Positions 43,478 through 63,670 of a stretch of 64,000 bases of DNA are shown here, piece by piece. A program made the translations under genes and the position numbers. The notes beneath the pieces are model-generated. The model worked only from the letters and a program-made list of their open reading frames with translations. It ran no database searches and was not told where the DNA came from. Source of the stretch: a virus (Duplodnaviria > Heunggongvirae > Uroviricota > Caudoviricetes); IMG/VR virus record IMGVR_UViG_3300042473_000506. The stretch is one strand, 5' to 3'. The stretch's first letter is position 1. Every line of letters starts with the position of its first letter.

Positions 43478-43542
43478 GATGTTTATCGTAAAATTTTGGA
43501 ATATCTTTTATTTAACTCTCTGCAATTTTGTAATATAAATAT

Positions 43543-45507: not shown

Positions 45508-45553
45508 AAATCAGTTATTTTATCCTATAAATATAATGCTCATAGGAAACTAA

Positions 45554-46330
45554 ATGAACACAGCATTTTTATCTAGCAGCACTAGGGGTGCTCAACTATT
45601 CTTGATATTAAATTTAATAGGTACTTTCGGTGCTGTCTGGTTGTACGGATTAAATTTTAATTCTTTTATGATGGTACTAGTGGGATACTTTTTATATGGT
45701 TGTTTAGGTATCGTCGTAACTTATCACAGAAATCTTTCTCACAATAGTTATAGAACACATCCGATCATTGTAAAGATATTTTCATTATTAGGATGCTTTG
45801 CAGGGACCGGCAGTCCACTTGCATGGGTGGCCATTCATATCAATCATCACTTAAAGAGTGACAAGCCTACTGATCCGCATAGTCCGTTATACAAAGGGGT
45901 AAAGATCTTTATGATGGATTATATAAATGAAGTTGATAAAGATACAAAATGGAGAATGAGGGCATTAGTCACTGACAGATTCCAGCAATTCCTACATAGA
46001 TATTATTTTGCAATCATTGCAACCTATAGCCTTGTACTATTTTTAATAGGAGGATTTTGGTTGATGGTATTTTTTCATTGGGCGCCTGCTGCAATGACCG
46101 CCCTTATGAGTAATGTTGTTAATTATGTGGGACACAAACCAAGTTGGTGGGGTGGATATAGAACACACAATCTAAATGATCAAAGTACAAATAATTGGCT
46201 ATGGGCTATTCCTAGTTGGGGGGAAGCGTGGCACAACAATCATCATAGATATCCTAGGAATTTTAGTTTTGGAAACAAGTGGTGGGAGATTGATATTTCG
46301 GCACTTGTAATTAGATTGATTAAAATTTAA
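45554..46330 (+). CDS. integral-membrane di-iron desaturase / hydroxylase-like enzyme, second paralogue
   Basis: Histidine boxes 'HRNLSH', 'HINHHLKSD', 'WHNNHHRYP'; same C-terminal 'KWWEID' as 44162..44950. Confidence 0.6.
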   Translation: MNTAFLSSSTRGAQLFLILNLIGTFGAVWLYGLNFNSFMMVLVGYFLYGCLGIVVTYHRNLSHNSYRTHPIIVKIFSLLGCFAGTGSPLAWVAIHINHHLKSDKPTDPHSPLYKGVKIFMMDYINEVDKDTKWRMRALVTDRFQQFLHRYYFAIIATYSLVLFLIGGFWLMVFFHWAPAAMTALMSNVVNYVGHKPSWWGGYRTHNLNDQSTNNWLWAIPSWGEAWHNNHHRYPRNFSFGNKWWEIDISALVIRLIKI

Positions 46331-47202
46331 TGAAATTTAATAGCAAACATCCAATTGTGGCTATGCCCATGAATGGAGTATCCAATGTTGACTTAGCTAT
46401 TGCTGTAACTCAAGCGGGTGCTGTACCTAGTTTGTCAATCTTTAATTATTATGAAGGTGGAAAAGTAAATCTAAAGCATGTAGATGCCAGTTTAAAAAGG
46501 TTTACAGATGCAACCAGTTCTACAGAAATAATTTTAAGTATGCACTGGGAACATTTTATATGGACTCCTGTTATAGATGTTCTATTAGAAAATAATATAA
46601 AATTAGTTGAACTTTTTATTAGACCATCAGATCATCATTTGTGGCCTGAATTATCTAAACAGATCGACAATATGAAGGTACACGGTATAGCTGTAATGTT
46701 TAAAACTTCTAATCGGCTACCTATGTCCTATTTTGATTCGATAGTATTGAAAGGTCCTCAGGCTGCTGGGAGATCATTCGGTAGTCTAGTATCATTAGAA
46801 GATCGATATGATGCTATGAAAGAACAAGTAGGATCAAGAATCATTCCAAGCGGTGGTATTGGCAGTCCTGAACAGGTAAAATATTTTATGGACAGAGAAG
46901 CATTAGCTGTGGGTATTGGCACACTACTTGCAGCATCTGAAGAAAGTTGTGTGTCAAGCGATACTAAACAAAAAATTATAGAGTCCACATCAAAAGATAT
47001 CAAATTAATAGGTCCGTTAAATTGCAGAGGGCTGTTATTTTCTAGACTAGAAAATGACGACGATAACAATTCCAAATCTCTATATGAGGGTATCAAGGGA
47101 ACTAATTCCGGATGCATCTATGTAGGCAACGGAATAGACTATATAAACAAAATAATGCCAGTAAAAGATATAATAGAGTGGTTAGTTAAAGATGTTAATT
47201 AA
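46330..47202 (+). CDS. FMN-dependent nitronate monooxygenase / FabK-like TIM-barrel oxidoreductase
   Basis: 'PIVAMPMNGVSNVDLAIAVTQAGAVPSLSIF' and 'IIPSGGIGSPEQVKYFMDREALAVGIGTLL' parallel the NMO/FabK FMN-binding blocks. Confidence 0.55.
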   Translation: MKFNSKHPIVAMPMNGVSNVDLAIAVTQAGAVPSLSIFNYYEGGKVNLKHVDASLKRFTDATSSTEIILSMHWEHFIWTPVIDVLLENNIKLVELFIRPSDHHLWPELSKQIDNMKVHGIAVMFKTSNRLPMSYFDSIVLKGPQAAGRSFGSLVSLEDRYDAMKEQVGSRIIPSGGIGSPEQVKYFMDREALAVGIGTLLAASEESCVSSDTKQKIIESTSKDIKLIGPLNCRGLLFSRLENDDDNNSKSLYEGIKGTNSGCIYVGNGIDYINKIMPVKDIIEWLVKDVN

Positions 47203-48358
47203 TAAGTTACTGGGCTATTATACATGTGACGGTTTAGAATTTGAATCAAAAATTCAAGCATGTTTTCATTCTCTTAAAGTCAACAAGCCAGTTGACTGGG
47301 TCTTTAATGATTTAGAATTTAGCATACACGACTGGACTAAAGAACCAGAAGAAACATTAGACCAATTATATGATAAACGAGTGAGAGATCTGCGAGCAAA
47401 ATACGATTATCTTATTTTAAGTTACAGCGGCGGCGCTGATAGCCATCAAATTTTAATGAGTTTTATTAGACAAGGTATACACTTAGATGAGCTGCTAATC
47501 AACACAATGGAAAAAGGTTGGAAACCTTATACTAGTTTAGATCCTAGAAATGTTTCTAGTTTGAATTCAGGGGCCGAGCATTACCTACAAACTATTCCAA
47601 GACTAAAAGAAGTAGAGCAGTTTATTCCAAAAACAAAGATTACAATCTGTGATCTAACTGATCAAGTTAACGATTCATTATTGTCAGTAGGTGATGCAAG
47701 CTGGGTATTGCAAAAAAGAGAAGCATTGAATCCTATAGGAATTACTCGATTTAACTATGTATACTTTGATGAAGTTCGTAGACTGTTTGATAAAGAGAAG
47801 AAGATAGGTATTATACTTGGAGTAGAAAAACCTAAAAGCATTATCCATGAAGGTCAATTTTGGATGAGATTCAATGATCGATCAGCTAACATGGTTACAA
47901 TTGTCGATCACATAAAAGATTACGACAACAGTGTTATTGAATATTTTTACTGGAGCCCTGAGTGTGTGCCATTATTAATCAAACAAGGACATGTGATAAA
48001 AAGATGGCTAGAATTAAATCCTAATTATCAGCAATACTGGAACACTAAAACTTCTAGTTATGCTTCTGTAAGATTTTGGCATGAGAGATTATTAAGAAAA
48101 GTTATGTATCCGACAACTTGGAATAATTCTTGGTTTCAAGTGCATAAAGCAACAAAAGATTGGTATAGCGAATTTGACAATTGGTTCATCGAAGGAAGCG
48201 TTAAAACAAAAGCCAATGTCATATGGCATGAGGGCATTGATTATGTTAGGAATTCTTTAACTCCATTTTTGAGATACGATTTAGAAACAAATCAACCAGA
48301 CGGATTACAATCCTTTGTTAAACAATATTTAATTGGTAGAGTTGAAACACGGTCTTAA
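47192..48358 (+). CDS. PP-loop ATP pyrophosphatase (adenine-nucleotide alpha-hydrolase superfamily)
   Basis: 'LILSYSGGADSHQILMSF' SGGxDS motif. Confidence 0.55.
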   Translation: MLINKLLGYYTCDGLEFESKIQACFHSLKVNKPVDWVFNDLEFSIHDWTKEPEETLDQLYDKRVRDLRAKYDYLILSYSGGADSHQILMSFIRQGIHLDELLINTMEKGWKPYTSLDPRNVSSLNSGAEHYLQTIPRLKEVEQFIPKTKITICDLTDQVNDSLLSVGDASWVLQKREALNPIGITRFNYVYFDEVRRLFDKEKKIGIILGVEKPKSIIHEGQFWMRFNDRSANMVTIVDHIKDYDNSVIEYFYWSPECVPLLIKQGHVIKRWLELNPNYQQYWNTKTSSYASVRFWHERLLRKVMYPTTWNNSWFQVHKATKDWYSEFDNWFIEGSVKTKANVIWHEGIDYVRNSLTPFLRYDLETNQPDGLQSFVKQYLIGRVETRS

Positions 48359-49263
48359 TCTTTTGTTTTGATCTTATTTTCTAAAATAAATTTTCTAATA
48401 TTGTCATTATAATTCAACGATTCTTTAATCTTAGATTTATCAGTATCTGATTTGAAAAATAATCCTATATCAGTAAGCCCTTGCTTATATTCTGCTGATT
48501 GAAATATTGTTTTTAGATCAGCTGTAATTTTACCTTTAGTATATTCATCCATAGTCTTAGGAACAATTACTGAAAGATAGCTTTGGAATGGGAACACTTC
48601 TTTATAAAAACTTTCCCATGTTGATGTTTTTAATCCAACAGCATGACTAGTTAATAATAATTTTAAATTTTCGTGATTGGTGTAGGCTTTAACTGTCGGG
48701 TAGTTGCCAAACATACAATCAACATGCCCGCCAACTAAATCTAATACAGACTTATTTCCCCCTTGAGCATAGGGAACGACGATATGATTGTTTTTAGTTT
48801 TTGATAGTAATACTTCAGTGGCGATATGTTCGGAAGACCCATAACCTCCAACAGCAAAGGACAATGATTTTTTAGTATTGATAAAGTCTTGATAGGATGT
48901 TATTCCTGTTTTAGCATTACAGAGTAATGCAGAGGGCATAATTCCTATAGTGGCCAGCACTTCTAAATCAATTTTGTGATCGTAATTTAAGTCGTTAAAA
49001 TTGATAGGGTTGGTAACAAAAACTTGAACTACAGTAGCCAGTAGCATAGTTTTTTCATTCATTAAATGACCCATAGCAATTTTGCCAGATGCTCCTGGCC
49101 GATTGACTACTACATATTTTTTATCTAAGTTTTTAGCGATATACCGTGTTGTGATATCGCTCACACCACCGGGAGCGTGCATAACTGTAAACTCTAATGA
49201 TTGAGCTACTGCAACTTTTGAAAAAAATAAAATTAATAAAAGAAAAAATTTGTTGATTAGCAT
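48355..49263 (-). CDS. secreted TctC/Bug-family-like solute-binding protein
   Basis: Signal peptide 'MLINKFFLLLILFFSKVAVAQS'; 'HAPGGVSDITTRYIA...VVNRPGASGKIAMGHL' resembles the TctC 'PAGGGTD...V.N.PGAGG' signature. Confidence 0.45.
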   Translation of the reverse strand: MLINKFFLLLILFFSKVAVAQSLEFTVMHAPGGVSDITTRYIAKNLDKKYVVVNRPGASGKIAMGHLMNEKTMLLATVVQVFVTNPINFNDLNYDHKIDLEVLATIGIMPSALLCNAKTGITSYQDFINTKKSLSFAVGGYGSSEHIATEVLLSKTKNNHIVVPYAQGGNKSVLDLVGGHVDCMFGNYPTVKAYTNHENLKLLLTSHAVGLKTSTWESFYKEVFPFQSYLSVIVPKTMDEYTKGKITADLKTIFQSAEYKQGLTDIGLFFKSDTDKSKIKESLNYNDNIRKFILENKIKTKD

Positions 49264-49281
49264 GATATATAAATATTCTTT

Positions 49282-49848
49282 ATGTACTTCTCATACTTAT
49301 CTCTTCCAAGATTACCTAAAGAATTTTTTGCTCAATGTTTGGAAAATGTAAAATACATTGGTGTAGATCCTAGACTAGAAAATGTTAATAGTTATCGAGG
49401 GCCAATGAATCGAGCTACGTATCTGCCCGAAGAATGTAATACATGGATTATTAGAAATATTGTATTTCCGTTATATGGAAGTATTCCTTCAACTCTAAAA
49501 TTAAATTTATTAAATGTAACTACATACCAAAAGTTAAAACCTCAAGAAGAGACATGGGGTACACACCCTAAACATATCGACAAAGGCAGAAACTGGGCAT
49601 TAAATTATTATTTTACCACTGGTGGAAGTAATACTACCGTTAGGTGGTACGAAGATAATGTTGTGGCAGCAGAAACACCACCTATAGAAATTAATAGATG
49701 GTGTTTATTAAAAGTTAATCAACTACACGATGTTAGAGGAATTGAAGAAGGTCAAATTCGATATTTTTTAACATTGAATATTTCTTCTGAAAATATAGAT
49801 AATTTTAAATCAGTAATTGATCAAAATACAGTGATTGAAAAAAAATGA
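49282..49848 (+). CDS. 2OG/Fe(II)-oxygenase-like protein, paralogue 8 (divergent)
   Basis: 'HPKHIDKGRNWALNYYF' ... 'NQLHDVRG' ... 'RYFLTLN'. Confidence 0.4.
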   Translation: MYFSYLSLPRLPKEFFAQCLENVKYIGVDPRLENVNSYRGPMNRATYLPEECNTWIIRNIVFPLYGSIPSTLKLNLLNVTTYQKLKPQEETWGTHPKHIDKGRNWALNYYFTTGGSNTTVRWYEDNVVAAETPPIEINRWCLLKVNQLHDVRGIEEGQIRYFLTLNISSENIDNFKSVIDQNTVIEKK

Positions 49849-51377
49849 CAGTAGATTGTTTGTTACTATATGGTAATCATTTATTACCTATGTCTAAATA
49901 TGCGGGAACATTTCGAATTGCTAGCGAGTTAAGAAATGCAGGCTATACTGTTCAGTGTATTGATATGACAGCGTATGAAGACAACCGTGAAGAACTCATC
50001 GATACAATAAAGATGTTTATAGGTAATAATACATTATGGGTGGGAATTAGTACAACCTTTTTGCGTCATGTATTTGGATATCCCTATTTTCGTACGATAG
50101 ATTCATTTAATGTAAAATCTACAACTATCCCAAATATTGATAAAGAAATTTTAAATTTTATTAAAACCGTTAAGGATATTAATCCAAACGTAAAATTTAT
50201 TGCCGGTGGCTCGAAAAGATTTATGATCGAGAAATACGGTTTTAAAGTTTTTACAAAAAATAATGATACTGAAATTATTGAGTTTACAGATTATTGTGCA
50301 AAAAAATCTAAAAAAATACCAGTAAGTTTTTTAGAATCACTGATTGAAGGTTCAGAATTTCAACAGTTTACAACAAGCCAAAATATCTTTACTAAGAACG
50401 ATATTGTCGAATCGTCAGATACCCTTCCTATTGAAGTTAGTAGAGGTTGTATTTTTAAATGTAAATTTTGTTCATTTCCACTTAATGGTAAAAAGAAAGG
50501 CGAATGGGTTAAACGTTCTAATGTATTGTATGAAGAGTTTATAAAGAATTATGAGTTGCATGGAGTAACAGAATACAGTTTTTCCGATGACACATACAAT
50601 GATAGTGAAGAAAAAGTTAAAAGATTGTATGACGAAGTGTATAGTAGGCTACCATTTAAATTAAACTTTACTACATATTTGAGACTTGATTTAATGATAA
50701 AATTTCCCGACACAGTGAAATACTTACAAGAGTCAGGTTTAAAATCAGCAGTCTTTGGTATAGAAACAATAAATCATAATTCAGGTAAGGCTATTGGCAA
50801 AGGTTTAAATCCCATTGAACAATTTCAGTTTATTGAAGAAATTAAAAAAAATGAATTTAAAGAGATACTAACTCGTTCTGGATTTATATTAGGGTTGCCA
50901 AAAGACAGACACGACGAGATTAATATCCTAGAAGAATTCTTATTTTCAGAAAAGAATAAATTAGATGACTTTAGTGTAGAACCTTTGATTATATTTCCTC
51001 CAAAATTTGATCAAACAAAATTTAAAGATTTTTCTGAATTTGATATAGAATATGAAAAATATGGATATAAGATTTATGAAAACATCGAAACATCTTCTAT
51101 TACTGAAATTAGATGGACCAACGATTATATCGGAATGACTTTTGATCAAGTAGCTAAAGCTGCAAAAAAAATAAATGTAAGAAAATATTTCGATGGTAGA
51201 TTCAAGTGCGGTGGATTTGGTTACAATTGGCATAGGTCTCTCGGAATTCCAGCAGATGATCTAGTGGCACTGAGTCGGAATGAAATATATACAAAGTATA
51301 ACGTCAAACAACTGCTAAAAACAAAAAAAGATAATTATCGATCATTAATACTTAATGTAATGAAAAATAATGAATAA
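49845..51377 (+). CDS. B12-binding-domain radical SAM enzyme (class-B rSAM-like)
   Basis: N-terminal Rossmann-like B12-binding region then 'SRGCIFKCKFCSF' CxxxCxxC cluster; 'TYLRLDL', 'ESGL..A.FGIE'; paralogue of 62063..63565. Confidence 0.65.
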   Translation: MTVDCLLLYGNHLLPMSKYAGTFRIASELRNAGYTVQCIDMTAYEDNREELIDTIKMFIGNNTLWVGISTTFLRHVFGYPYFRTIDSFNVKSTTIPNIDKEILNFIKTVKDINPNVKFIAGGSKRFMIEKYGFKVFTKNNDTEIIEFTDYCAKKSKKIPVSFLESLIEGSEFQQFTTSQNIFTKNDIVESSDTLPIEVSRGCIFKCKFCSFPLNGKKKGEWVKRSNVLYEEFIKNYELHGVTEYSFSDDTYNDSEEKVKRLYDEVYSRLPFKLNFTTYLRLDLMIKFPDTVKYLQESGLKSAVFGIETINHNSGKAIGKGLNPIEQFQFIEEIKKNEFKEILTRSGFILGLPKDRHDEINILEEFLFSEKNKLDDFSVEPLIIFPPKFDQTKFKDFSEFDIEYEKYGYKIYENIETSSITEIRWTNDYIGMTFDQVAKAAKKINVRKYFDGRFKCGGFGYNWHRSLGIPADDLVALSRNEIYTKYNVKQLLKTKKDNYRSLILNVMKNNE

Positions 51378-51426
51378 TTATCTAGGTAGAGTTAAATTAA
51401 CATTTTTACAAAATTAGAACTAACAA

Positions 51427-52347
51427 ATGGAAAGACATAATCAATGGATGAGCTACAGTTTTGATGCTATAGAATATGGCAAAAAAACTGATTCAAATTC
51501 TATTTTTAAAATTCATTTTAATAAAAAAATAGATAAAAATCTCCCTTCTTATAGAGATGCATTATTTAATAATGCCCGTATTATGCGAGACTCGTATAAT
51601 GAACCATTTGATGTAATGTTGTCAGGCGGAGTTGATAGCGAAATGGTTGTGCGAACATTTCATGCTGTGGGAATTAAACACAATACATTTATTTTTAGAT
51701 TAGAAAATGATTATAACATTCGAGATGTTAATTATGCCATAGCTGTTTGTAAAGAACTAAACATTAATTATAAAATAATAGATTTTAATTTACAAAAATT
51801 CTTCGAAAATGATGCACTTGATTTATTTCAAAAGACACTAATTCCAAGATCAGGAAGAATAGTGAGACTTGCGTGGTTTAACTATCTTGATAATATTCCA
51901 GTTTTTTGTGACGGTGAACCCTACTGGCGCAGGGATGCAAATAAAGATTTTAGTAAAAAATCTACGTGGAGATTAATTTTAAACGAAGACGGATACTCGT
52001 GTTCTACCTATGCTAAATCAATTGGTAGAGTAGCGATTGGGGATTGGTATGAATATACCCCCGAATTGTTATTGTCATACAACGAATTGCCGTTAGTTAA
52101 AAAATTACTCAACGACGAAATCTCAGGGAAGATTAGTTCCTGGAGTAGCAGGTCTGCTATTCACAGAGATATCTGGCCTACTGTACAGGATAAAATAAAA
52201 TTAGCAGGATACGAAGGTGCAGACGGCAATCCTGTATTGAGTCGTCCGGATTTTATGAATCACTTTCAGGTAACGTATATGAATCAAGTGTCCAATACTC
52301 ATTACGAATATACTGAAGAAGAACTAAGAAATTTAATCCTTAATTAG
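51427..52347 (+). CDS. asparagine-synthetase-like PP-loop amidotransferase domain protein
   Basis: 'FDVMLSGGVDSEMVVRTF' followed by 'FCDGEPYW' (compare AsnB 'SGEGSDEVFGGY'); paralogue of 55967..56896. Confidence 0.5.
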   Translation: MERHNQWMSYSFDAIEYGKKTDSNSIFKIHFNKKIDKNLPSYRDALFNNARIMRDSYNEPFDVMLSGGVDSEMVVRTFHAVGIKHNTFIFRLENDYNIRDVNYAIAVCKELNINYKIIDFNLQKFFENDALDLFQKTLIPRSGRIVRLAWFNYLDNIPVFCDGEPYWRRDANKDFSKKSTWRLILNEDGYSCSTYAKSIGRVAIGDWYEYTPELLLSYNELPLVKKLLNDEISGKISSWSSRSAIHRDIWPTVQDKIKLAGYEGADGNPVLSRPDFMNHFQVTYMNQVSNTHYEYTEEELRNLILN

Positions 52348-53172
52348 ATTTTCTCGGACCCAACGTCCCCAATGTATACAATGATACTCGTATTTTGATA
52401 GTGATTCGGTAACAGGAAAGAATTTTGTTTTTATCTTTTCGATCGCAGCAACATCTTCCCTAAACACAGTTTCTAATGTTTCAAATTCGATACGATCATT
52501 ATGTGGAACATCAGGGGCATAATAGAATTGTGTAATCCATTCGAATTTCCATTCTATATTTTTATCTGCAGGAACAATAGTGTTTACTGACAGGCATCCT
52601 TTCTTATGCTCGACAAAGGTGTAGGGGTATATATAGAGTGACCACCAACCTGGAGAATGTTCTTGGAATATCCATCCATCTCCTTGATCCATAACAACAT
52701 TATCTAAATCAATTTGTTCAGAGAGTCTCGGATGAATTCCATCCTTTTGTACATGTAAATAATCTGCTTCAGCATCCATGAGCCATAACCAGCTTCCCTC
52801 GCTTTTACCTTGAAGAGAATGACTATATTCTAGCGTTGTTTCTTTTTCCAGATCATCGACCCATTGATGGTCTGGTTCGATAAAATCTTTAAATACTAAC
52901 CCTGATCGACCAACAGTTGCAGTCCCACAATTTAATTTTTTAGAATTATTAATTGGTGTGCCATTTGCATCCCATTGAAATCCGTGGAACTTACATGTAA
53001 TGCTGTTGATATGTGTTCCTGGATCAGCTAGTGGATACATTCTGTGGGGACAAAATCTGTGAAATAAATTTACTATATTACCTTGTTTATTTAGAATATA
53101 TTCAGAAACTGCAAAGTTCTTGTCCTGCAATGCACTGAGATGAGCAAAAATTTTAGGAGATTTAATAAACAT
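52333..53172 (-). CDS. Rieske [2Fe-2S] non-heme-iron oxygenase
   Basis: 'CPHRMYPLADPGTHINSITCKFHGFQW' = CxH-x16-CxxH Rieske motif. Confidence 0.6.
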   Translation of the reverse strand: MFIKSPKIFAHLSALQDKNFAVSEYILNKQGNIVNLFHRFCPHRMYPLADPGTHINSITCKFHGFQWDANGTPINNSKKLNCGTATVGRSGLVFKDFIEPDHQWVDDLEKETTLEYSHSLQGKSEGSWLWLMDAEADYLHVQKDGIHPRLSEQIDLDNVVMDQGDGWIFQEHSPGWWSLYIYPYTFVEHKKGCLSVNTIVPADKNIEWKFEWITQFYYAPDVPHNDRIEFETLETVFREDVAAIEKIKTKFFPVTESLSKYEYHCIHWGRWVRENLIKD

Positions 53173-53204
53173 TGTAAGAGTAATGTGCGTATATAAATAG
53201 TTGT

Positions 53205-53792
53205 ATGTATGCTATTTACTTAAACGACATAGAAAGATTTATTGCGATTGAAAAAGATCTTTGGATTGCACATGCATCGGCAAAATTGCTATCTTCAAAA
53301 TTATCTATCTCTATATGTGATATCGGAAATGCATTGTCTGTAACTAACTATAACTGTTTTCAATGGACATTGTCAAGTGTAGACTTGCCCGCCTCTACAC
53401 AATATCCAAAATTAGTTGTACCAAAAGATTCTAAATTAGAATTTGTCGGTGATCCTATTAATACAGATATGGAAATGTTAAAATTGCATCAGCAATTTTG
53501 TTTGTTAGTATTAAAGGTTGTTTTTGCGGCAAAAATGACCGACATTGAATTAAATTCAGGAGATCGAAAATATTTTCAATCTTTACTTAAAAACGACACT
53601 TTACTATCTGCGTCGGACGAGTCCGGAATTCCTGGAGGGTTTTTACATACAATAGAAAGAATTCTTTATTTGAGTTCAAATGTAACGCACGTTATGTCTC
53701 ATATTGAATTAATGTTTAATAATTCAGAGAGTATATTTCCTAGAAATCTTGCACAATATAAATTACTATTTTACAAATACTTAAATGCATAA
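53205..53792 (+). CDS. hypothetical protein
   Basis: ORF. Confidence 0.3.
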   Translation: MYAIYLNDIERFIAIEKDLWIAHASAKLLSSKLSISICDIGNALSVTNYNCFQWTLSSVDLPASTQYPKLVVPKDSKLEFVGDPINTDMEMLKLHQQFCLLVLKVVFAAKMTDIELNSGDRKYFQSLLKNDTLLSASDESGIPGGFLHTIERILYLSSNVTHVMSHIELMFNNSESIFPRNLAQYKLLFYKYLNA

Positions 53793-55077
53793 ATTTTATT
53801 ACAAAACCTTTGATCCAAACCTTAGAAGTTTTTCTAAATTGCTCAGTAACAATGTAACTGATTTACCACCAGGCGGCAGATTCTATTTTAATCTTGCAAG
53901 ATCAATGCGTATGAGCGGTGAGAATTACCTATTTAGAGATGGGGAGTGGAGTGATCCTTTTAAAACTGTGGTCCACCCTACCTTTGCTATGCCATCATAT
54001 ACGTCAAATTTTAATTTAAATTTTTCAGAAGTATCGGACTTAAGGTCTCTCGATATTAAAAAAATCATCAACGATACTGATCGGTCGATAGTAATTCAAT
54101 GGTCTGGAGGAATTGACAGTACTGTAGCACTTGTATCTTTATTAAAAAATCTGTCACATTCTGAATTGTCAAATGTAATTATTGCAATGAGTAGCGACAG
54201 CCTTTTAGAAAATCCTAATTTTTATAATAAGTTTATTAAAGATAAATTCAAAATTATTGATTCTGAAAATATGTTGTTTAACGATTATAAAGAAAAATAC
54301 AATGCATATTGCATCATGGGAGACACAGGCGATTGTCTATTTGGTTCAGAATTAGGAAATAAATTATACCCTAAGATGAAATTTATACAAGATAACACTG
54401 GTCATCTTTATAACAAAATTAGTTCACCTGATGTACATTATTCAATCTATAGGGATATCATTGTACAGTATTTTAATGATAATCTTCAAACTTCAATACT
54501 TTCTTTAAAACAACAAGGTGTAGTTAACAGTAGTATTAGCGAATTTATTTCAGGGGACGAAACGTTTGGAGAACTATTCTACGAAAAAATTGTTAAGAAT
54601 ATAGAAACATGCAGTGTTCCTATATACAGTCTACATGACTTTTTCTGGTGGACAATCTTTAGTGGAAGATATATATTCTGTGCCCTAAGAGGACCTAGTG
54701 TGTTTAGCATCGGCGCCAATAAAGAGGCATTAATTAATGATTGTCTTATTCAATGGTTTAATACCGACGAATATCAACTATGGTCTATGAATAATAATAA
54801 CAATGGGGAAAAGTTATCTGGGCCTATACAAGGCCTTGGAAAAACTGCTGCAAAAAAATACATTTACGATTTTGATAAAAACGAATGGTATTTTACGCAT
54901 AAGATGAAAGTCGTGTCGTCACCAAATATTCTTAGAAGAAACTGGCGTAAACATTTTGCAGATTTTGATCCTATGCTAGGTGTTGATACAAATTACAATT
55001 TGATTAAAATAGGACCAGCGACAGTTAACAATTATGTCATTAATAGACTAATGAACTACAAAATAGATTGGTGTTAA
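53785..55077 (+). CDS. PP-loop ATP pyrophosphatase
   Basis: 'VIQWSGGIDSTVALVSLL' SGGxDS motif. Confidence 0.5.
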   Translation: MHKFYYKTFDPNLRSFSKLLSNNVTDLPPGGRFYFNLARSMRMSGENYLFRDGEWSDPFKTVVHPTFAMPSYTSNFNLNFSEVSDLRSLDIKKIINDTDRSIVIQWSGGIDSTVALVSLLKNLSHSELSNVIIAMSSDSLLENPNFYNKFIKDKFKIIDSENMLFNDYKEKYNAYCIMGDTGDCLFGSELGNKLYPKMKFIQDNTGHLYNKISSPDVHYSIYRDIIVQYFNDNLQTSILSLKQQGVVNSSISEFISGDETFGELFYEKIVKNIETCSVPIYSLHDFFWWTIFSGRYIFCALRGPSVFSIGANKEALINDCLIQWFNTDEYQLWSMNNNNNGEKLSGPIQGLGKTAAKKYIYDFDKNEWYFTHKMKVVSSPNILRRNWRKHFADFDPMLGVDTNYNLIKIGPATVNNYVINRLMNYKIDWC

Positions 55078-55970
55078 TTTTGAGTTATTTCTTTCTTATA
55101 TCGTTCTCTGAAAGACTTTAATAAAGAAATACTTGAATGGTAATGCAATTTTGAATCTTGATTATAAAAGACAGGACTTATAAAGTCTCCTAATCCAAAC
55201 AACTTATTCTTGCCTAAATTCATTGTAGCTTGATGAAATATAGCGGATATATTTTCTTTAGTTTCTTTGGGCATTTCTTTTGATGCCATAGTGAAATGAA
55301 AGATATATGGAGCTGTAATTTTTTGCTCAGTTAACGTTTTAATATTTGGGAGATCTGGGTGTCGTTCTGTGCAACTCATTCCGATTATTTGTAAGTTAGG
55401 ATTCTTTGCCTTGTACTGATTAAATGCAGATACACGCTCAACAATAAAGTTAATACTATTATTGTCAGAAGCCATGTGGAGCAGTGCATCTGCATTGCTT
55501 CGATACACAATATAGCGAACAGGTATATTATATTTTTTTCCTAGTTCTAGACCTAGTAGATGAGTAGCACCACCTATAGCAGGGCCGCCTATGGTAAGTT
55601 CTTTAGGAAGCTCATTTTCTTTAAAGTTAGTAATAATTGCCCAGCAGGCACTTCCGTGACTAAACACTGGTTCTAATTTATTTAGGTCAATTAGTCCTCT
55701 ACTTTCAGCTTCGACTACACTATTGGTAATAGTCACAACACGATTTTTTGGTTGTTCTAATGCCTCTCGAACACCTATACTTTCAAAGCCACCAGCTTTA
55801 AATTCTGTAACAAATTTATATTTGTTTTGTATTTTATTTGCTTCATCTAACACAGCGAATATTTGAGGAGTCATACTTTGCGTAGGTCCTTGAGCATTTA
55901 TTACTACAATAGTTTCTTGTGCCTGTGCTAGATTTAAAAATAACAATAAACTTACAATTATAAACTTCAT
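55074..55970 (-). CDS. secreted periplasmic-binding-like protein
   Basis: Signal peptide 'MKFIIVSLLLFLNLAQAQE'; size and layout like 48355..49263. Confidence 0.4.
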   Translation of the reverse strand: MKFIIVSLLLFLNLAQAQETIVVINAQGPTQSMTPQIFAVLDEANKIQNKYKFVTEFKAGGFESIGVREALEQPKNRVVTITNSVVEAESRGLIDLNKLEPVFSHGSACWAIITNFKENELPKELTIGGPAIGGATHLLGLELGKKYNIPVRYIVYRSNADALLHMASDNNSINFIVERVSAFNQYKAKNPNLQIIGMSCTERHPDLPNIKTLTEQKITAPYIFHFTMASKEMPKETKENISAIFHQATMNLGKNKLFGLGDFISPVFYNQDSKLHYHSSISLLKSFRERYKKEITQN

Positions 55971-56896
55971 GGGATTCCTTTAAATTTTTTGTTTACTTCT
56001 TCAAGTGAATACGTAAAACTAAGATTGGTTAAGTCTGACATTTGATTTTCCATATAAAAATCTTTAAAAAATTTAGGAAGACTTTCTAAAGGTGTTCCAG
56101 TCGGACCTTCGTAACCAATTAATTTTGATTTATTTTTTATGTCTGGCCATATCTGTTGATGTAAAGATATTCTACTAGAGAGGGTGCTTTTTTTGCCTAC
56201 ATTTTTATCATCTAGCAAATCTTTTATAAGATCATTTTGATGGTAACTCATTGTAATGTAGGGAGTGTATAGGTACCATTCTCCTATAATCTCTCTATTA
56301 TGATGGTGTGATGTTAACGACATAAAAAGCTGGCGCTCAGTAAGATACAGAGACCAATTAGATTTTTTTGTATAATCACTGAGCAAGTCTCGTTTCCAAT
56401 AAGGAGATCCTTCACCAAAAACAGGTATGTTATCTAAATAATCTAACCATTTAATTTTTGATAAGGACGGACTATGCGGCACTAACGTTTTTTCAAATAT
56501 GTCTTTAGCATCGTGTTCATAAAATTTAGATAAGTTAAAATCAATAATTTTATAAGGTATATTTAATGTTTCACATATCTGTATTGAAGAATTAATATCT
56601 CGAATATTTAAATTATCTTCGTACCTAAAAATAAATGTATTATGTGTTATACCTAAATCTTTAAAAGTGCGAACTATCACTTCGCTATCTATGCCACCGG
56701 ATAATAAAACATCAAACGGCTCTGAAAAAGAATCTCGCATAATACTTGCATTTTGTATCAATGCATCATGATACGACATTGGCATAATGTCGTTAGAGAT
56801 ATTAAAATGAATGTCCAGGAAAGATCTTCTAGAAGATTTAGGAGAATTTAAAATTCCGTCAAAAGAATACGTCATCCAATCTCTAAATCTTCTCAT
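55967..56896 (-). CDS. asparagine-synthetase-like PP-loop amidotransferase domain protein (paralogue)
   Basis: 'FDVLLSGGIDSEVIVRTF', 'FGEGSPYW'; ~50% identical over long stretches to 51427..52347. Confidence 0.5.
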   Translation of the reverse strand: MRRFRDWMTYSFDGILNSPKSSRRSFLDIHFNISNDIMPMSYHDALIQNASIMRDSFSEPFDVLLSGGIDSEVIVRTFKDLGITHNTFIFRYEDNLNIRDINSSIQICETLNIPYKIIDFNLSKFYEHDAKDIFEKTLVPHSPSLSKIKWLDYLDNIPVFGEGSPYWKRDLLSDYTKKSNWSLYLTERQLFMSLTSHHHNREIIGEWYLYTPYITMSYHQNDLIKDLLDDKNVGKKSTLSSRISLHQQIWPDIKNKSKLIGYEGPTGTPLESLPKFFKDFYMENQMSDLTNLSFTYSLEEVNKKFKGIP

Positions 56897-56902
56897 AGAA
56901 AA

Positions 56903-57235
56903 TTAAAGTTCTTCTTTTTCTACCGGGTCAGAATAAATGCCTACAGAAGTGTTATATGCATCGAGAGCGGCAGTTCTTTCAATCGTTACACTACGACTTG
57001 CATAGTCCTCGTAGAGTTCTTTACTTTCCCATATGAATTCTACTTCTAATGTCAGCTCGTCCGGTTCGGATAACGTTCTGATTTTTCTCCCATGAAACTC
57101 TCCGAACATCATTTCTAACATTCGGGTATTTAAATCTTCATCTAAGTTTAGATTAAAATACCATTCTATCGTTTCATTCGGTCTATGAAATCTGCTTAAA
57201 ACTCTATATGCCATGCTAATTCTCCAGTGATACAA
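56903..57235 (-). CDS. hypothetical protein
   Basis: ORF. Confidence 0.3.
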   Translation of the reverse strand: MYHWRISMAYRVLSRFHRPNETIEWYFNLNLDEDLNTRMLEMMFGEFHGRKIRTLSEPDELTLEVEFIWESKELYEDYASRSVTIERTAALDAYNTSVGIYSDPVEKEEL

Positions 57236-57297
57236 TTATTTATTGTTTTAGATAAGAGATCTTATATTTTGATGTGCTAGCAATATACTTTTAGAAT

Positions 57298-58080
57298 TTA
57301 CCATATTATAGCATAGTCTTTAAATTTGGTAGCCGACATAACTATCATATCTCTAGTTCTCTGTCGAACTATAGTTTGATAATTTTTTTTAACTGTTATA
57401 AATGCTGCAATTCTAATACCTGAAACATTTATTGATGGTGCATGTACTGCTCTAAAATTGTTTAGATAATATGCCATGTGCGGATCGGTCATCTTACAAT
57501 TAAAAATTTCTTCTTGCAATCTTCTATCCCCGCCGGTTAACGGTACAGTAATACCTTCCTGTCTGTAGTAGGGCAGTTTTGTTTTTCGTAATAATAATGG
57601 ATTATCATTGTAGTGTTCACACTCGAGGTAGAATCTAAAACCGGTTGGATCAACATCATTGTGCCAAAATGAAACACCTTTGACGGATTTTCTTACTGGC
57701 AAGAATATTGCACCACTAAGTTCATGTCGGCGTATTTTAAAAGCTTCATAGCAATATACTGCTAGTTCGGGAAATTCTTTATCAAAATTATTTTGCCAGA
57801 CGCCGTCCCAAGCACCCCAAACTAAATCCCAAGGGTATTCTTCTCCAATAATATCTTCAGCATTATCTGATTTAGACTTACAGGATTGCGGGTAGGCACT
57901 TTGCGCCCAAGATAAAAATTTTGTAATGTCTACATCCGGTCTCTTTGGGATGTCTAAGGGAGTATAACAAATATCAATAGGTTCCATACTTATTTTTTTT
58001 AATCTTGTTTGCTTATAACGGATATGCACAATATTTAAAAGAGCATTCATTGCTAAGTTATTTATTTTTAAAAATAACAA
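57298..58080 (-). CDS. hypothetical protein (possible further HxD...H oxygenase; real start may be Met at 57987)
   Basis: 'FWHNDVD' ... 'RAVHAPS' pattern. Confidence 0.3.
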   Translation of the reverse strand: MLFLKINNLAMNALLNIVHIRYKQTRLKKISMEPIDICYTPLDIPKRPDVDITKFLSWAQSAYPQSCKSKSDNAEDIIGEEYPWDLVWGAWDGVWQNNFDKEFPELAVYCYEAFKIRRHELSGAIFLPVRKSVKGVSFWHNDVDPTGFRFYLECEHYNDNPLLLRKTKLPYYRQEGITVPLTGGDRRLQEEIFNCKMTDPHMAYYLNNFRAVHAPSINVSGIRIAAFITVKKNYQTIVRQRTRDMIVMSATKFKDYAIIW

Positions 58081-58116
58081 TATGTCCGCATTGAATGGCT
58101 ATACAATTAGATTGCC

Positions 58117-59115: not shown

Positions 59116-59282
59116 TCGATACCACCTCCCCTTTCAGGGCGTCCGGAATAACAAAATAAAACAGGATACCTTTTTCGATGGCTTGGAAGCCATTGCTCTA
59201 CCATTGAGCGATCTACGCAAAAGCGTGGAGTTGGAATCGAACCAACATGTCATTTAAGACGTTGCTGCATGTATCCTAAAAT

Positions 59283-59508: not shown

Positions 59509-59584
59509 TGGTACCTGGTGTCAGACTCGAACTGACATCGTTCTCCGTGTAAAGGAGATGCATAACCTCTCTGCGCAACCAGGC
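59509..59584 (-). tRNA. tRNA-Val (anticodon TAC)
   Basis: Acceptor GCCTGGT/ACCAGGT, anticodon TCTCC-TTTACAC-GGAGA, T GTCAG-TTCGAGT-CTGAC, CCA encoded. Confidence 0.65.
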
Positions 59585-59591
59585 AAAAATA

Positions 59592-59665
59592 TGGAGCGGG
59601 GTAAGAGAATCGAACTCTCAGCATGAGCTTGGAAGGCTCAGGTATTACCACTATACGAACCCCGC
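59592..59665 (-). tRNA. tRNA-Gly (anticodon TCC)
   Basis: Acceptor GCGGGGT/ACCCCGC, D GTAT/ATAC, anticodon TGAGC-CTTCCAA-GCTCA, T GAGAG-TTCGATT-CTCTT, CCA encoded. Confidence 0.7.
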
Positions 59666-59669
59666 ATAC

Positions 59670-60177
59670 TTTATTAAAACATACTCCCAACAAGTGTCTT
59701 ATGCTTGTTGTACCGTGTGCTAGGCACATTTCCTTTGCAAGGCTCCCCCGGGTTTGGGCTACGTAGACAAAGAATATATTTTAATAAAGTTACCTTATTG
59801 AAACACACTGTTGCGGCCGCAGGATACCGAGTGATGTAGTGAGTCGGAATCAAACCTTCCCAATCTACACAGTGCTCTCCACAATGCGTTTCAATAAAGT
59901 GTCTAGCTACTCACACCACATGAGCCCTAAACTGGTCTGTTGCTACGTCCATAACATTTTCTTCTTCTGGAAAGGCTGTTAATCCTCACCCTAGGCAGTT
60001 TCCAGTATCCCTTAAATAGGGACTGTGAGGTCAGGTCCTAGTGTACCCTCTGGTCTATCGTTACAGAGACGCTATTTCGTTACGTAGAAATAGTAAGACG
60101 GGTTTTCAACAGGTTAATACTAGTTTAATGACCTAGCAGTCGCCATATTTTTGATAGCTGTAATTAACCTAAAAACT
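59670..60177. ncRNA. ORF-free ~500-nt spacer in the tRNA array with multiple local stems; candidate small stable RNA(s)
   Basis: No ORF >=60 aa on either strand; hairpins such as cctcac...gtgagg and tccc-ttaaata-ggga, recurring TACGTAG palindromes. Confidence 0.25.
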
Positions 60178-60252
60178 TGGTGCCCCGTGTCTGAATCGAA
60201 CAGACGATCTCCGCTTTACAAGAGCGGCGCATTGCCACTGTGCTAACAGGGC
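60178..60252 (-). tRNA. tRNA-Thr (anticodon TGT)
   Basis: Acceptor GCCCTGT/ACGGGGC (one G.T), anticodon CCGCT-CTTGTAA-AGCGG, T GTCTG-TTCGATT-CAGAC, CCA encoded. Confidence 0.65.
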
Positions 60253-60261
60253 GCAATATAT

Positions 60262-60528
60262 TTAACCGCCCTGAGTGGAATCACTTACATTCTTTGACTG
60301 TTCATCTGCTAGATATGATGCTAGCTTTGATTGAAAGTCAGCTTCTGTTAGACCATGCCAACCGACACACTTACCAGTCGGACTACGACCACAACCGCAT
60401 TTTCCAATCTCATCTGCATTTTCTTGTACTCTTACTTGCATATCTTTCTTTCCAAAAATAGCGTCATAGTTGTTAGCAAATGTATTCTGGCTAACGCTAA
60501 ACGGACGAGCTCTTGAACCTTTTGACAT
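60262..60528 (-). CDS. small Cys-rich (probable zinc-binding) protein
   Basis: 'GKCGCGRSPTGKCVGWHG' cluster; 1-nt junction with the rpoZ-like gene. Confidence 0.4.
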   Translation of the reverse strand: MSKGSRARPFSVSQNTFANNYDAIFGKKDMQVRVQENADEIGKCGCGRSPTGKCVGWHGLTEADFQSKLASYLADEQSKNVSDSTQGG

Positions 60529-60758
60529 TACCGAACCTTTTTAAGATACTCTCTACCAATTTTACCTGCTTCAATTTCTTGCAAGGCAGTAATAGTGGCA
60601 CTGTTGGTTCCGCTAACTTGTTTAGCATGTCCACGTCGCAGTTCGCGAACTCGAGCACTGGCAATCAGAACTAGATCAAATCTATTGCCCACGGCTTCGA
60701 CACATTTGTCTGTGTCGATGTTCTGTGGAGAAAAGGGAACTTTAATAACTTTAATCAT
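60528..60758 (-). CDS. rpoZ: RNA polymerase omega subunit (RpoZ) homologue
   Basis: '[24 protein letters not shown]' and '[14 protein letters not shown]' parallel E. coli RpoZ '[24 protein letters not shown]' and 'TTVIALREIEEGLI'. Confidence 0.7.
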   Translation of the reverse strand: [76 protein letters not shown]

Positions 60759-60785: not shown

Positions 60786-60861
60786 TGGCTCCCCGGGCAA
60801 GGATCGAACTTGCGACCAACAGATTAACAGTCTGCTGCTACTACCGCTGAGCTACCAGGGA
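60786..60861 (-). tRNA. tRNA-Asn (anticodon GTT)
   Basis: Acceptor TCCCTGG/CCGGGGA, anticodon GCAGA-CTGTTAA-TCTGT, T GCAAG-TTCGATC-CTTGC, CCA encoded. Confidence 0.6.
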
Positions 60862-60868: not shown

Positions 60869-61042
60869 TTACTTTGCGTCTCGCTCTTTAGAGGATCGCG
60901 GAACAATGTTCGCAGCCACTTGAGCATCTATCATTGCATTTTTGAATCCATGACGGTCTTGATCGTTCTTAAAACTCATCAATGCTATCATAGTCTTTGC
61001 TCTTTTACTCAACCTAAAAGTTGAACCTGTTCTTGCTCTCAT
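60869..61042 (-). CDS. possible small basic ORF (57 aa) between tRNAs; not in ORF track
   Basis: Hand translation 'MRARTGSTFRLSKRAKTMIALMSFKNDQDRHGFKNAMIDAQVAANIVPRSSKERDAK'; weak AAGGA upstream. Confidence 0.2.
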   Translation of the reverse strand: MRARTGSTFRLSKRAKTMIALMSFKNDQDRHGFKNAMIDAQVAANIVPRSSKERDAK

Positions 61043-61303: not shown

Positions 61304-61357
61304 AAATTTTTATTATACAGGATATTTATAATCCTGTCAACCTCTATTTTAATAACT

Positions 61358-61846: not shown

Positions 61847-61952
61847 AAAATACTAACTTTACATTTTTAAAGAACAGTGCTGTTATTAGCAGCGTATGTA
61901 TAAATTATACTGTCTTTCTCAGTGTGTGTCAACAGGTATTTAAAAATATTTT

Positions 61953-62026: not shown

Positions 62027-62062
62027 ATTTTTGTGTTATCACTAGGAATCAAATCTAAATGT

Positions 62063-63565
62063 TTATTTTAGAGACATGAGATCATTATAATACGTTTGTA
62101 CAAACAAGTGAACTCTATTTTGCCATTCATTGTCTAAGTTGTATTCGCCCCATCGCAGTCTATCTATTTCTTCAACAGTGTATCCAAATTGTAGGACTTC
62201 AACTGCGTTCCAGCCGCCTCTTTTAACATGCGGGGCCGCGCTTTCAGTTAGCAAATTTGTCCATTTTACTACATCTAAAAATGTAAGACCTGATGAATGC
62301 TTCCACCAAGTTTGTCTCCAGAGACGCTTACCAATAGCGTAAGACTCGGGCAATACCTGTATTATTTCAAATCCATATTTTTCTGCATTACGTTCAAACT
62401 CACTAGTGAATACCGAAGTATCAGGTTTATTAAGTAATAAGGGAATTATTTTCCAGGATGTTATTTTATTATCGACACACCAGTTATGAGTTTCTTTTAA
62501 ATCATCTAATGTTTCTGGAGGAATGCCTGCGATAAAACTAAGATGTTCTTTTACTTTTCCCTGCCATCTGTCCTGTAACAAATGAGGCAAATAGTCTTTG
62601 GCTTTTTTTCCGCTAAATGCCTTTCCTACCAAAGCAGATGCATCTTTATTAAAACTTTCTATTCCAAAAAAAGCTCCATAAAGACCGCTTTCCAATAACA
62701 TATCTTCAGTATGACGATGAGCCTCAATTAAATCTAATCTTAAATAAGTTGCATATTTAATTTTAAAAGGTAAGGATGATACCATTTTGGCAAATTCTTC
62801 CAATCTTTCGGTGTCTGCATTAAATGTATCGTCTAAAATATAATAATTCGTTGTTCCAAATCTTTCGTAATTGTCAAGTAACTCATCTCTTATATTTTCC
62901 ATCGGTTTAAGGAAATCTTTTTTATTTTTTCCAATTAACGGATATTGACAGAATTTACACTTAAAAATGCATCCCCTGGTTGTTTCTAACGGCAATGCTT
63001 CATTTGGCTGTATAGCATCACTGTCATGCCACCTAAAATTACACTGCTCAATTGAAAATCCTTCATTACTTTGATACGAAGATTCTTTTACAATTTTGTA
63101 ACCGTCTGCACCTATTTCGACAAATGGCTGTGGACCTTTTTTAAAAATCCAATTGCAAAATTGTAACATTGTATTTTCAGCATGACCTGTAAAATAATAA
63201 TCAAGTGTTTTTTTTAATTTTCCTTTAATTATACCAACAGATGGGCCACCGGCTATTATTTTTAAATTTGGATGTTTTGTTTTAAGTTGTTTAATTGCTG
63301 AACTGAATATAGAAAAGAATACATCGTTAGCTTCTAATAAAATTCCTCCAAGGCCTATAACTTTGGTTTCATCTGTTACAAATTTTTCAAACAGTGCATT
63401 TACTTTATCCAATGTAAAAATTGGTTCAGAATAATTTATAACCTGTACTGTATAACCAAAGAGTCTTAAATACCAAGCTAATTGGTGACCCCCAATTGAT
63501 CTAGGAGCGGCGCCCCGATAATCGCTAATTGTTTGTATAATAATAACATTCATAATAGTAAACAA
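62063..63565 (-). CDS. B12-binding-domain radical SAM enzyme, second paralogue, embedded in the tRNA array
   Basis: 'TRGCIFKCKFCQYPL', 'DDTFN', 'TYLRLDL', 'ESGLYGAFFGIE' co-linear with 49845..51377; AT-rich like the island. Confidence 0.65.
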   Translation of the reverse strand: MFTIMNVIIIQTISDYRGAAPRSIGGHQLAWYLRLFGYTVQVINYSEPIFTLDKVNALFEKFVTDETKVIGLGGILLEANDVFFSIFSSAIKQLKTKHPNLKIIAGGPSVGIIKGKLKKTLDYYFTGHAENTMLQFCNWIFKKGPQPFVEIGADGYKIVKESSYQSNEGFSIEQCNFRWHDSDAIQPNEALPLETTRGCIFKCKFCQYPLIGKNKKDFLKPMENIRDELLDNYERFGTTNYYILDDTFNADTERLEEFAKMVSSLPFKIKYATYLRLDLIEAHRHTEDMLLESGLYGAFFGIESFNKDASALVGKAFSGKKAKDYLPHLLQDRWQGKVKEHLSFIAGIPPETLDDLKETHNWCVDNKITSWKIIPLLLNKPDTSVFTSEFERNAEKYGFEIIQVLPESYAIGKRLWRQTWWKHSSGLTFLDVVKWTNLLTESAAPHVKRGGWNAVEVLQFGYTVEEIDRLRWGEYNLDNEWQNRVHLFVQTYYNDLMSLK

Positions 63566-63593
63566 ATATTTATCATTAACTGTATATAAAACT

Positions 63594-63670
63594 TGGTCCC
63601 GCCAGTAGGAATCGAACCTACATTTAAGTCTTAGGAGGACCCCGTACTATCCATTGTACTATAGCGAGAT
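63594..63670 (-). tRNA. tRNA-Arg-like (anticodon CCT) with non-complementary acceptor stem (probable pseudogene or recombined gene)
   Basis: D GTAC/GTAC, anticodon GGGTC-CTCCTAA-GACTT, T GTAGG-TTCGATT-CCTAC are good; 5' end ATCTCGC cannot pair with 3' TGGCGGG. Confidence 0.3.

Follow-up and report, generated by a model that had tools for sequence, protein, structure and literature searches.

A bacterial-type RNA polymerase omega homologue in the tRNA array of a jumbo phage: a widespread phage group with a candidate partner protein

Omega, the smallest of the subunits of bacterial RNA polymerase (RNAP), is also the one about which least is understood; cells can do without it in the laboratory, yet it is universal. 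Why would a bacteriophage encode one of its own? This question is raised by a stretch of 64,000 nucleotides (nt) from the IMG/VR virus record IMGVR_UViG_3300042473_000506 (Caudoviricetes), here called the window, in which a preliminary description, made from the sequence alone, had pointed to a small gene (60528..60758, minus strand, 76 codons from an ATG start) as a homologue of RpoZ, the omega subunit, inside an array of tRNA genes. We report that this open reading frame (ORF) is a genuine RpoZ/omega homologue with an intact structural core, describe the group of phage omegas to which it belongs, and weigh what such a protein may do during infection.

The ORF was matched by PF01192 (RNA_pol_Rpb6) with 51.2 bits (cut-off 26, E 1.3e-13) and by TIGR00690 (rpoZ) with 36.9 bits (cut-off 23.6). 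The narrower NCBIfam model NF001579 remained below threshold (20, for a cut-off of 58), and no PHROGs family was matched by this protein or by the product of the gene that follows it. With phmmer run against PDB sequences, residues 16-72 matched residues 6-64 of E. coli omega (E ~1e-7); the alignment contained the very blocks from which a block-for-block likeness to RpoZ had been claimed, and the claim therefore holds. The preliminary description had also left room for two unfavourable outcomes, an assignment to an unrelated family by profile search and a lack of the omega helices. The profiles that won were those of omega, and the AlphaFold2 (AF2) model, obtained with 22 homologues and having a mean predicted local distance difference test (pLDDT) score of 82, comprised four helices (residues 16-23, 26-41, 54-63, and 70-74). 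The top 50 PDB matches listed by Foldseek for this model were omega chains in 50 cases out of 50. Superposition on E. coli omega gave a template modelling (TM) score of 0.71-0.73 and a root-mean-square deviation of 1.4-1.6 Å over ~62 residues, with 39% identity. When 58 viral and 62 cellular omega sequences were compared, the core positions (E. coli G14, N15, R16, F17, D18, L19, L21, A23, R26, R28, A50, L51, E53, I54, E55, and G57) were found to be kept in the phage omegas and to be invariant or nearly so in both sets.

With E. coli RpoZ, the phage protein has in common the fold, the order of the helices, and the conserved blocks (among them ALxEIExG), at 39-42% identity. It differs by the absence of the acidic C-terminal tail of gammaproteobacterial omegas (76 amino acids, as compared with 90-91) and by its translational coupling to a small metal-motif protein, here called the partner. 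Its genomic surroundings are also different. Cellular rpoZ sits in a gmk-rpoZ-spoT context: in ~65 of the 77 cellular rpoZ loci that we fetched, a full-length SpoT-type ORF came right downstream, and only 3 had a tRNA gene within the locus. The phage gene is instead located, as had been noticed, within a tRNA array, which comprises 18 minus-strand tRNA genes over the last 5.4 kb of the window. It is bounded by tRNA-Asn(GTT) (60786..60861, minus strand), whose 3' end precedes the start codon of omega by 27 nt, and by tRNA-Thr(TGT) (60178..60252, minus strand), which begins 9 nt past the stop codon of the partner gene.

The window belongs to a phage, as it encodes tail-fibre and baseplate proteins, rIIA/rIIB, a prohead protease, UvdE, and glycosyltransferases. 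Its DNA had no close relative among 50,697 GenBank phage records, and its rIIA was only 28% identical to the rIIA of PA5oct-like jumbo phages. The omega protein, in contrast to the rarity that had been proposed for it, turned out to have numerous relatives in metagenomes. The protein database contained 473 related omega protein clusters, of which the top ~57 shared 72-96% identity with the window protein, and exactly the same protein was present on 72 contigs, the longest of 376 kb. In IMG/VR, a relative was carried by at least 452 viral contigs, many of them 200-524 kb long, with identities ranging from 53 to 100% among the 80 that were fetched. The viral copies were mostly located in tRNA arrays, and the contexts that were inspected (on 308-, 361-, 271-, and 234-kb contigs, and others) were phage-like.

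Phage omegas form a group of their own, present in hundreds of jumbo-phage contigs. Over the core (residues 20-76), all 58 distinct viral omegas had their closer match in a viral sequence with a different type of N-terminus (median identity 70%) and not in any of the cellular omegas sampled (median 51%). The core was 42-58% identical to proteobacterial omegas, and the nearest cellular omegas with an adjacent spoT reached at most 48% identity (tblastn). Cellular genomes were scanned with the peptide patterns GNRFDL[VI]L[IV] and EIE.G.[IV]GR[ED], which favour gammaproteobacterial sequences, and 'nearest' applies within that scope. The top candidate for a cellular omega was rejected: NZ_JBBAKG010000090.1 (locus L009, a 23-kb contig of a Haliscomenobacter metagenome-assembled genome, 51% identity) showed a VGREYL signature and phage-type neighbours. 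Its omega gene adjoins the phosphatase/phosphoesterase pair typical of omega phages, with neither gmk nor spoT, and the contig is probably a mis-binned phage fragment.

The omega gene is under strong purifying selection. In the subgroup to which the window belongs, the ratio of nonsynonymous to synonymous substitution rates (dN/dS) was 0.05-0.15, and the comparison with the related locus L089 disclosed no nonsynonymous difference while 20% of the synonymous sites had changed. This bears on the idea that omega is a recently captured host gene, carried as a functionless passenger in a recombination-prone tRNA array. The array is indeed an insertion hot spot, and the closest relatives of the window lack both a radical S-adenosylmethionine (radical-SAM) gene (62063..63565) and an island of 18.9 kb. 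The idea is effectively refuted by the low dN/dS, by the synteny of omega with its partner across phages down to ~60% identity, and by the distinctness of the viral group from spoT-adjacent cellular omegas.

Among the 50,697 GenBank phage records, tblastn yielded 8 omega matches, 2 of them in Salmonella genome records, and none of the matches that we inspected was in a genuine phage record. CAKLQH020000003.1 ('Acinetobacter phage MD-2021a', 240 kb) was rejected as a source of phage omega, the match being surrounded by bacterial chromosome (pil, ispH, gmk-rpoZ-spoT, bfr). An equivalent match was found in CAKLQF020000004.1, which bears the same name, and the two are likely mislabelled database entries; the remaining matches look like enterobacterial rpoZ DNA. 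The rarity put forward in the preliminary description is thus correct for GenBank phages and incorrect for metagenomes, where the gene is widespread in one jumbo-phage group. In BFVD, two automatically named proteins of uncultured phages shared the omega fold. Targeted full-text literature searches (phage omega, MAR motif, Site 1, phage alarmone hydrolases) retrieved no paper on a phage-encoded omega; a 'moraphage' paper and one on rpoZ as a marker gene proved not to bear on the matter. The omega family itself is known and is annotated automatically in databases, while the phage-specific clade appears to be undescribed, as do the occurrence of omega in sigma70-driven tRNA arrays, the diversification of its segment that contacts guanosine tetraphosphate (ppGpp), and its coupling to a two-module partner.

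Which polymerase would receive this subunit? A motif scan of the window disclosed 6 perfect sigma70-consensus promoters (TTGACA-N16-18-TATAAT), all on the coding (minus) strand, whereas 0.14 was expected and none of 100 shuffled sequences reached 6. One of them (61312..61340, minus strand, 17-nt spacer) heads a run that consists of tRNA-Leu, tRNA-Ala, a 57-amino-acid ORF (60869..61042, minus strand, without match in Pfam, NCBIfam, or PHROG), tRNA-Asn, omega, the partner, and tRNA-Thr. A second site of the array is found at 61904..61932, another directly upstream of an alarmone hydrolase gene (37259..37287), and the others at 2069..2098, 35949..35977, and 39060..39088 (all minus strand). Besides the site at 2069..2098 and the two within the tRNA array, the sites precede rIIA, the alarmone hydrolase gene, and a phosphatase gene. 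The related viral loci (L001-L008 and L089-L168; 971 kb) had 170 perfect sites on the strand of omega and none on the opposite strand, and in four of these loci (L008, L120, L123, and L128) the promoter ended 18-32 nt ahead of the omega ATG. No perfect site was found in 461 kb of cellular rpoZ loci. Such promoters indicate that the host sigma70-RNAP should transcribe the omega region from the start of infection, as is typical for early phage genes. They are also, together with the proteobacterial type of the omega and the presence of TctC genes, indirect hints as to the host. We also noted that the promoter at 61312..61340 ends 9 nt short of the mature 5' end of tRNA-Leu, so that the tRNA-Leu transcript would be nearly leaderless.

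The polymerase could in principle be one made by the phage, with beta- and beta'-like proteins encoded elsewhere in the ~370-kb genome, of which the window represents 64 kb. Giant eukaryotic viruses have Rpb6 homologues in their own RNAPs. The subunits of phiKZ-type RNAPs are extremely divergent, unlike the omega core with its clear resemblance to proteobacterial omegas. Neither the window nor the related viral loci (971 kb) contained an ORF with a beta'-like DxDGD motif, and the omega region is dense in perfect host-type promoters; these two observations together favour the host enzyme as the destination of omega. Some jumbo phages do encode their own multisubunit RNAPs, which are however devoid of both alpha and omega (PMC7598289). 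We consider it very unlikely that the phage omega serves such an enzyme.

Taken together, these data make us lean towards the view that the phage omega is an early product that occupies the omega position on the host RNAP. The sharing of the cell-invariant core residues suggests that it probably assembles on the host beta' subunit. Once made by the host sigma70-RNAP, the protein would bind beta' in the host core enzyme, either replacing the host omega or joining it, and the polymerase that serves the phage would thereby be re-fitted. A free omega could conceivably act off the polymerase, as a decoy that titrates a host factor (a regulator or a defence sensor) binding omega or the omega/beta' surface. 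Proteins are known to dock on omega, as exemplified by GafA (PMC9638019), and the phage-specific signatures at both termini could serve a new partner. We have no candidate target for a decoy, and the strict conservation of the residues that are invariant in cells is more simply explained by binding to beta', so that this explanation is hardly credible.

If the phage omega does take the place of the host subunit, the segment in which it differs most from the latter is of particular interest. In E. coli, Site 1 of RNAP holds ppGpp through contacts of its phosphates with omega residues 2-5, via main-chain atoms of A2, R3, and V4, and the deletion omega-delta(2-5) belongs to the classical Site 1 knock-out (PMC7676912, PMC10191844). 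An omega that binds ppGpp is customarily recognized by its MAR motif (PMC6416229), and in E. coli Site 1 governs elongation, pausing, and backtracking rather than initiation (PMC10191844). This is why a replaced N-terminus matters. In the 62 sampled cellular omegas, MARVTV was conserved at 85-100% per position, the M, A, R, T, and second V being present in at least 97%. The window omega has no M-A-R-(V/I)-T at residues 1-5. A 10-residue extension is followed by PQNIDTDKC (codons 11-19; 60702..60728, minus strand), which aligns with E. coli M1-A9 (M-A-R-V-T-V-Q-D-A), P-Q-N-I-D standing where the MAR motif is expected. The NIDTDKC-type motif is conserved within the subgroup, and the segment had a low pLDDT in the isolated AF2 model.

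The N-terminus was found to be the most variable part of the phage omegas. The 58 distinct sequences comprised 24 of the DTDKC subtype (including the window protein), 16 with MAR(I/L)TS, 8 with R(V/A)RYTS, 5 with MSNSRNTS, and others, a diversification that may reflect differing hosts or strategies. Other residues were conserved specifically in phages, namely E39 (Q in cells) and the C-terminal G68-R69-x-Y71-L72. For the subtype of the window, it is possible, though we hold this only tentatively, that the extension and the loss of MAR abolish or remodel Site 1, in which case elongation on phage DNA would no longer be slowed by host ppGpp, an effect to which a phage alarmone hydrolase would contribute.

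Such a hydrolase is indeed encoded in the window, as had been proposed. The ORF 36696..37232 (minus strand, 178 amino acids) was matched by PF13328 (HD_4) with 57.5 bits (cut-off 27.2) and carries an HDVVED motif from residue 67. Its best PDB relatives were Mesh1 (6e-14) and the hydrolase domains of Rel/SpoT, which identifies it as a small alarmone hydrolase of the Mesh1/SpoT-hydrolase type. A MazG-like protein is encoded at 21464..21835. In locus L090, which is devoid of the 18.9-kb island, the hydrolase gene is 5.2 kb from omega, and in four loci with another omega subtype (L125, L127, L131, and L134) the distance is 1-4 kb. This closeness echoes the adjacency of rpoZ and spoT in most cellular loci. 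On such circumstantial grounds, the hydrolase is possibly linked functionally to omega. The preliminary description had suggested that the phage omega could enter the host RNAP and alter its responsiveness to ppGpp; indirect support for this suggestion comes from the replaced MAR segment, from the host-type promoters of the omega region, and from the proximity of the hydrolase gene in several relatives.

The partner gene (60262..60528, minus strand, 88 amino acids) directly follows omega. The A of its ATG is also the final base of the omega stop codon (cggTAATGtca), which bears out the 1-nt junction with a Cys-rich protein mentioned in the preliminary description. The partner family comprised 1109 homologues, unnamed save for one stray automatic label, and the gene was directly downstream of omega in relatives down to 61% omega identity. 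Alignments disclosed two modules in the partner, fused here but encoded by separate genes in other phages. The N-module (residues 1-29; 60442..60528, minus strand; MSKGSRARPFSVSQ..F.NNYDAIFGKK) has K3, G4, S5, R8, P9, S11, Q14, F17, F25, and K27 as invariant residues, and stands alone as a small gene beside omega in L097, L098, L115, L132, and others. The C-module (residues 30-88; 60262..60441, minus strand) is a separate gene in L115, L097, L098, L132, L147, and L164. When separate, the modules came right after omega in L097, L098, L115, and L132, and just upstream of it in L147, L164, and L165. The C-module co-occurred with omegas of the DTDKC type (18/5, as compared with 4/29; Fisher p 8e-7, not corrected for phylogeny). 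Kin of the N-module (MSKGSRPRPFSVSQ..F.NNYDAIFGK, elsewhere MSKGSRPRPFSVSQ...(Y/W)DAIFG(K/R)) were also observed as multiple independent genes of ~60 codons around omega and the tRNA arrays. Some of these N-module-type proteins have a proline-rich 'YVPPPLP' or an acidic tail, and many end with QGG; they constitute a large, uncharacterised phage family.

The C-module is characterized by the motif CGCGRSPTGxCxGWHGL.E, of which the part CGCGRSPTGxCxGWH (codons 44-58; 60355..60399) was invariant in 24 of 24 aligned homologues. Its ligand pattern, C-x-C-x7-C-x3-H (Cys3-His; with further residues, C-x-C-x2-S-...-C-x-G-x-H), has the ligand order of the CDGSH motif of [2Fe-2S] domains of the mitoNEET family (PF09360), C-x-C-x2-(S/T)-x3-P-x-C-D-G-(S/A/T)-H, from which it differs by a loop shorter by one residue and by the replacement of D-G-S by (V/I)-G-W. 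In one homologue (P0209), the motif of the C-module is fused to a canonical CDGSH module (CRCGLSKNKPFCDGAH). No match to PF09360 was obtained with the window partner or with any of the 24 homologues, even at E<=10, and hhalign of the C-module against CDGSH, run with approximate CISD1 and CISD2 sequences, gave a probability of 15%. No recurrent Pfam family was found over the 24 homologues, the profile search of the partner against PDB sequences returned nothing, and the AF2 model of the partner had a pLDDT of 51 and was unusable.

From the translational coupling, the conserved adjacency, and the fusion of the modules, we infer that omega and the partner act together. The two-module partner might dock on the phage omega, which would then be its adaptor on RNAP; we put this forward as a tentative possibility. 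A different view is that the phage omega is only a matter of supply: like the host omega, it would fold and stabilise beta' and promote assembly of the core enzyme, so that enough stable polymerase of the host remains once host expression has collapsed in the course of a long infection, without change in regulation. The conservation of the structural core, the canonical MAR N-terminus kept by many members of the family, and the presence in the window of proteostasis genes (Cpn10 and a ClpP-family protease, matched by Pfam Clp_protease and also by a PHROG head-maturation protease) agree with a chaperone function, which is the established role of omega with respect to beta' (PMC7598289). Unexplained by it are E39 and the C-terminal G68-R69-x-Y71-L72, the diversification in phages of an N-terminus that is nearly invariant in cells, and the translational coupling to a conserved partner. 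Furthermore, E. coli can dispense with its own omega, and host omega is not known to be in short supply (PMC7676912). We therefore regard a pure supply function as unlikely.

If the phage omega indeed occupies the omega position of the host enzyme, the most elaborate version of this reading is that omega and its partner are a plug-in module for the host RNAP. The acidic NIDTDKC segment would fill or close the basic ppGpp pocket of Site 1, making elongation blind to the alarmone, and the CDGSH-like partner, recruited onto RNAP through omega, would dock on a phage-specific surface. A metal or iron-sulfur centre in the partner, possibly near the conserved Cys19 of omega, would perhaps provide a redox- or iron-sensitive switch under phage control. 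In this complete form, the proposal is a long shot.

Several points weigh against the placement of the phage omega on the host RNAP and against the functions derived from it. We infer the association with beta' from conservation only, and an existing core enzyme already holds a host omega, which the phage omega would need to displace. We have read 64 kb of a ~370-kb genome, and a phage multisubunit RNAP could lie elsewhere in it. As to Site 1, the canonical MAR(I/L)TS N-terminus is retained in 16 of the 58 distinct phage omegas, which means that the loss of Site 1 cannot be the general purpose of the family and that its general role must be broader. The stringent response at initiation requires neither Site 1 nor omega itself in E. 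coli (PMC10191844), and the gain from removing Site 1 may therefore be small. The RNAP of the host may moreover be devoid of a MAR-type Site 1. The hydrolase may serve to counter toxic alarmone synthetases that attack tRNAs, and have nothing to do with omega. Finally, the CDGSH identity of the partner is putative, being derived from a motif, and should be taken as a lead rather than a finding.

How would such a protein compare with known means of phage control over transcription? T4 Alt/ModA, AsiA/MotA, and RpbA, the Xanthomonas phage protein P7, and Thermus phage gp39 have no kinship with RNAP subunits and act by binding to the enzyme surface or modifying it. The phage omega would, like them, be an early, sigma70-made re-tooler of the host RNAP, but it is a homologue of a core subunit itself, and our targeted full-text searches found no described precedent for host RNAP being re-tooled by a phage-supplied core-subunit homologue. 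The RNAPs of phiKZ and AR9 are also jumbo-phage gene products akin to cellular RNAP subunits; they are split beta/beta' homologues, whereas the available sequence of the omega phage has promoters of the host type and is devoid of a beta' motif. Nucleocytoviricota encode an Rpb6/omega protein of the same superfamily (weak BFVD matches), which is part of a complete viral RNAP, while the phage omega is of the bacterial type and no other RNAP subunit was seen in the window or in the fetched loci. The closest functional parallel may be the gene transfer agent of Rhodobacter, a phage-like element, the activator GafA of which docks on omega (PMC9638019). There, a dedicated small regulator acts on RNAP through omega, and the phage omega and its partner could work alike, with the differences that GafA uses the host omega, while here omega is encoded by the phage, and that the partner, for which Pfam and PHROG gave no match, is not related to GafA.

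That hundreds of giant phages keep omega under strong purifying selection, put it under host promoters of the greatest possible strength, and diversify the ppGpp segment that cells hold invariant amounts to a natural experiment on the purpose of this subunit. Should the phage omega enter the host RNAP, it would represent a new class of take-over, by substitution of a core subunit rather than by an unrelated modifying or binding factor, and a direct handle on the function of Site 1 in the control of elongation and pausing. Omega and its two-module partner provide a concrete protein-protein hypothesis; if they proved to be a plug-in module, this would be the first virus to replace a core subunit of bacterial transcription, and the enigmatic omega would gain a selectable function. 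A more practical consequence concerns metagenomics, where rpoZ sometimes serves as a bacterial marker gene (PMC10134851), since phage copies of omega would contaminate such counts.

Several other features of the window were noted. The block 39253..58116 (18.9 kb, both strands) has a G+C content of ~32%, as compared with 40-45% in its flanks, and is absent from L089 and L090, the flanks of which align at 88-96%. It encodes two TctC-family solute receptors, two fatty-acid desaturases, a Rieske protein, and nitronate-monooxygenase-like, radical-SAM, and QueC-like proteins. With the tRNA array on one side and the hydrolase cluster on the other, it has the appearance of a metabolic island specific to the strain. 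Near the hydrolase gene, at 37523..39036 (minus strand), is a trio encoding a dual-specificity phosphatase-like protein, an AAA_33 (polynucleotide-kinase-like) protein, and a metallophosphoesterase. The same trio was observed near tRNA arrays and an alarmone hydrolase gene in several phages (L001, L003, and L009), and it may be an RNA/tRNA end-repair set.

The radical-SAM protein whose gene is inserted in the tRNA array (62063..63565, minus strand) has 500 residues and a weak match to a B12-binding domain. The corresponding segment (62028..63646) is missing in L090, which is what identifies the array as an insertion hot spot, and a similar radical-SAM gene follows omega in L008. Two stretches of the array may encode other RNAs. 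A full-length match to YrlA (Y-RNA-like) at 59160..59277 (minus strand) stayed below threshold (29.3 bits, gathering cut-off 69, E 7e-4). This part of the array, a 530-nt stretch devoid of ORFs and tRNA genes, also gave a weak tRNA-like match (23.2 bits), which overlaps that to YrlA. The 512-nt spacer 59666..60177 (minus strand), in which we found no ORF, tRNA, or Rfam family, folds better than shuffled sequences (z = -2.6) and carries a T-arm-like element (GGTTTGATTCC); a stretch that overlaps it (59554..59882) is not conserved in L090. A degenerate tRNA is one possibility for this spacer, an unknown RNA another.

Lastly, QueD is encoded at 13177..13683 (minus strand), and the window also contains genes for GTP cyclohydrolase I and QueC-like proteins, which together point to a 7-deazaguanine (preQ0-type) pathway that might serve in the modification of DNA. 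Besides Cpn10, the window also encodes a membrane protein of the Bax-inhibitor-1 family and a Band-7 protein.

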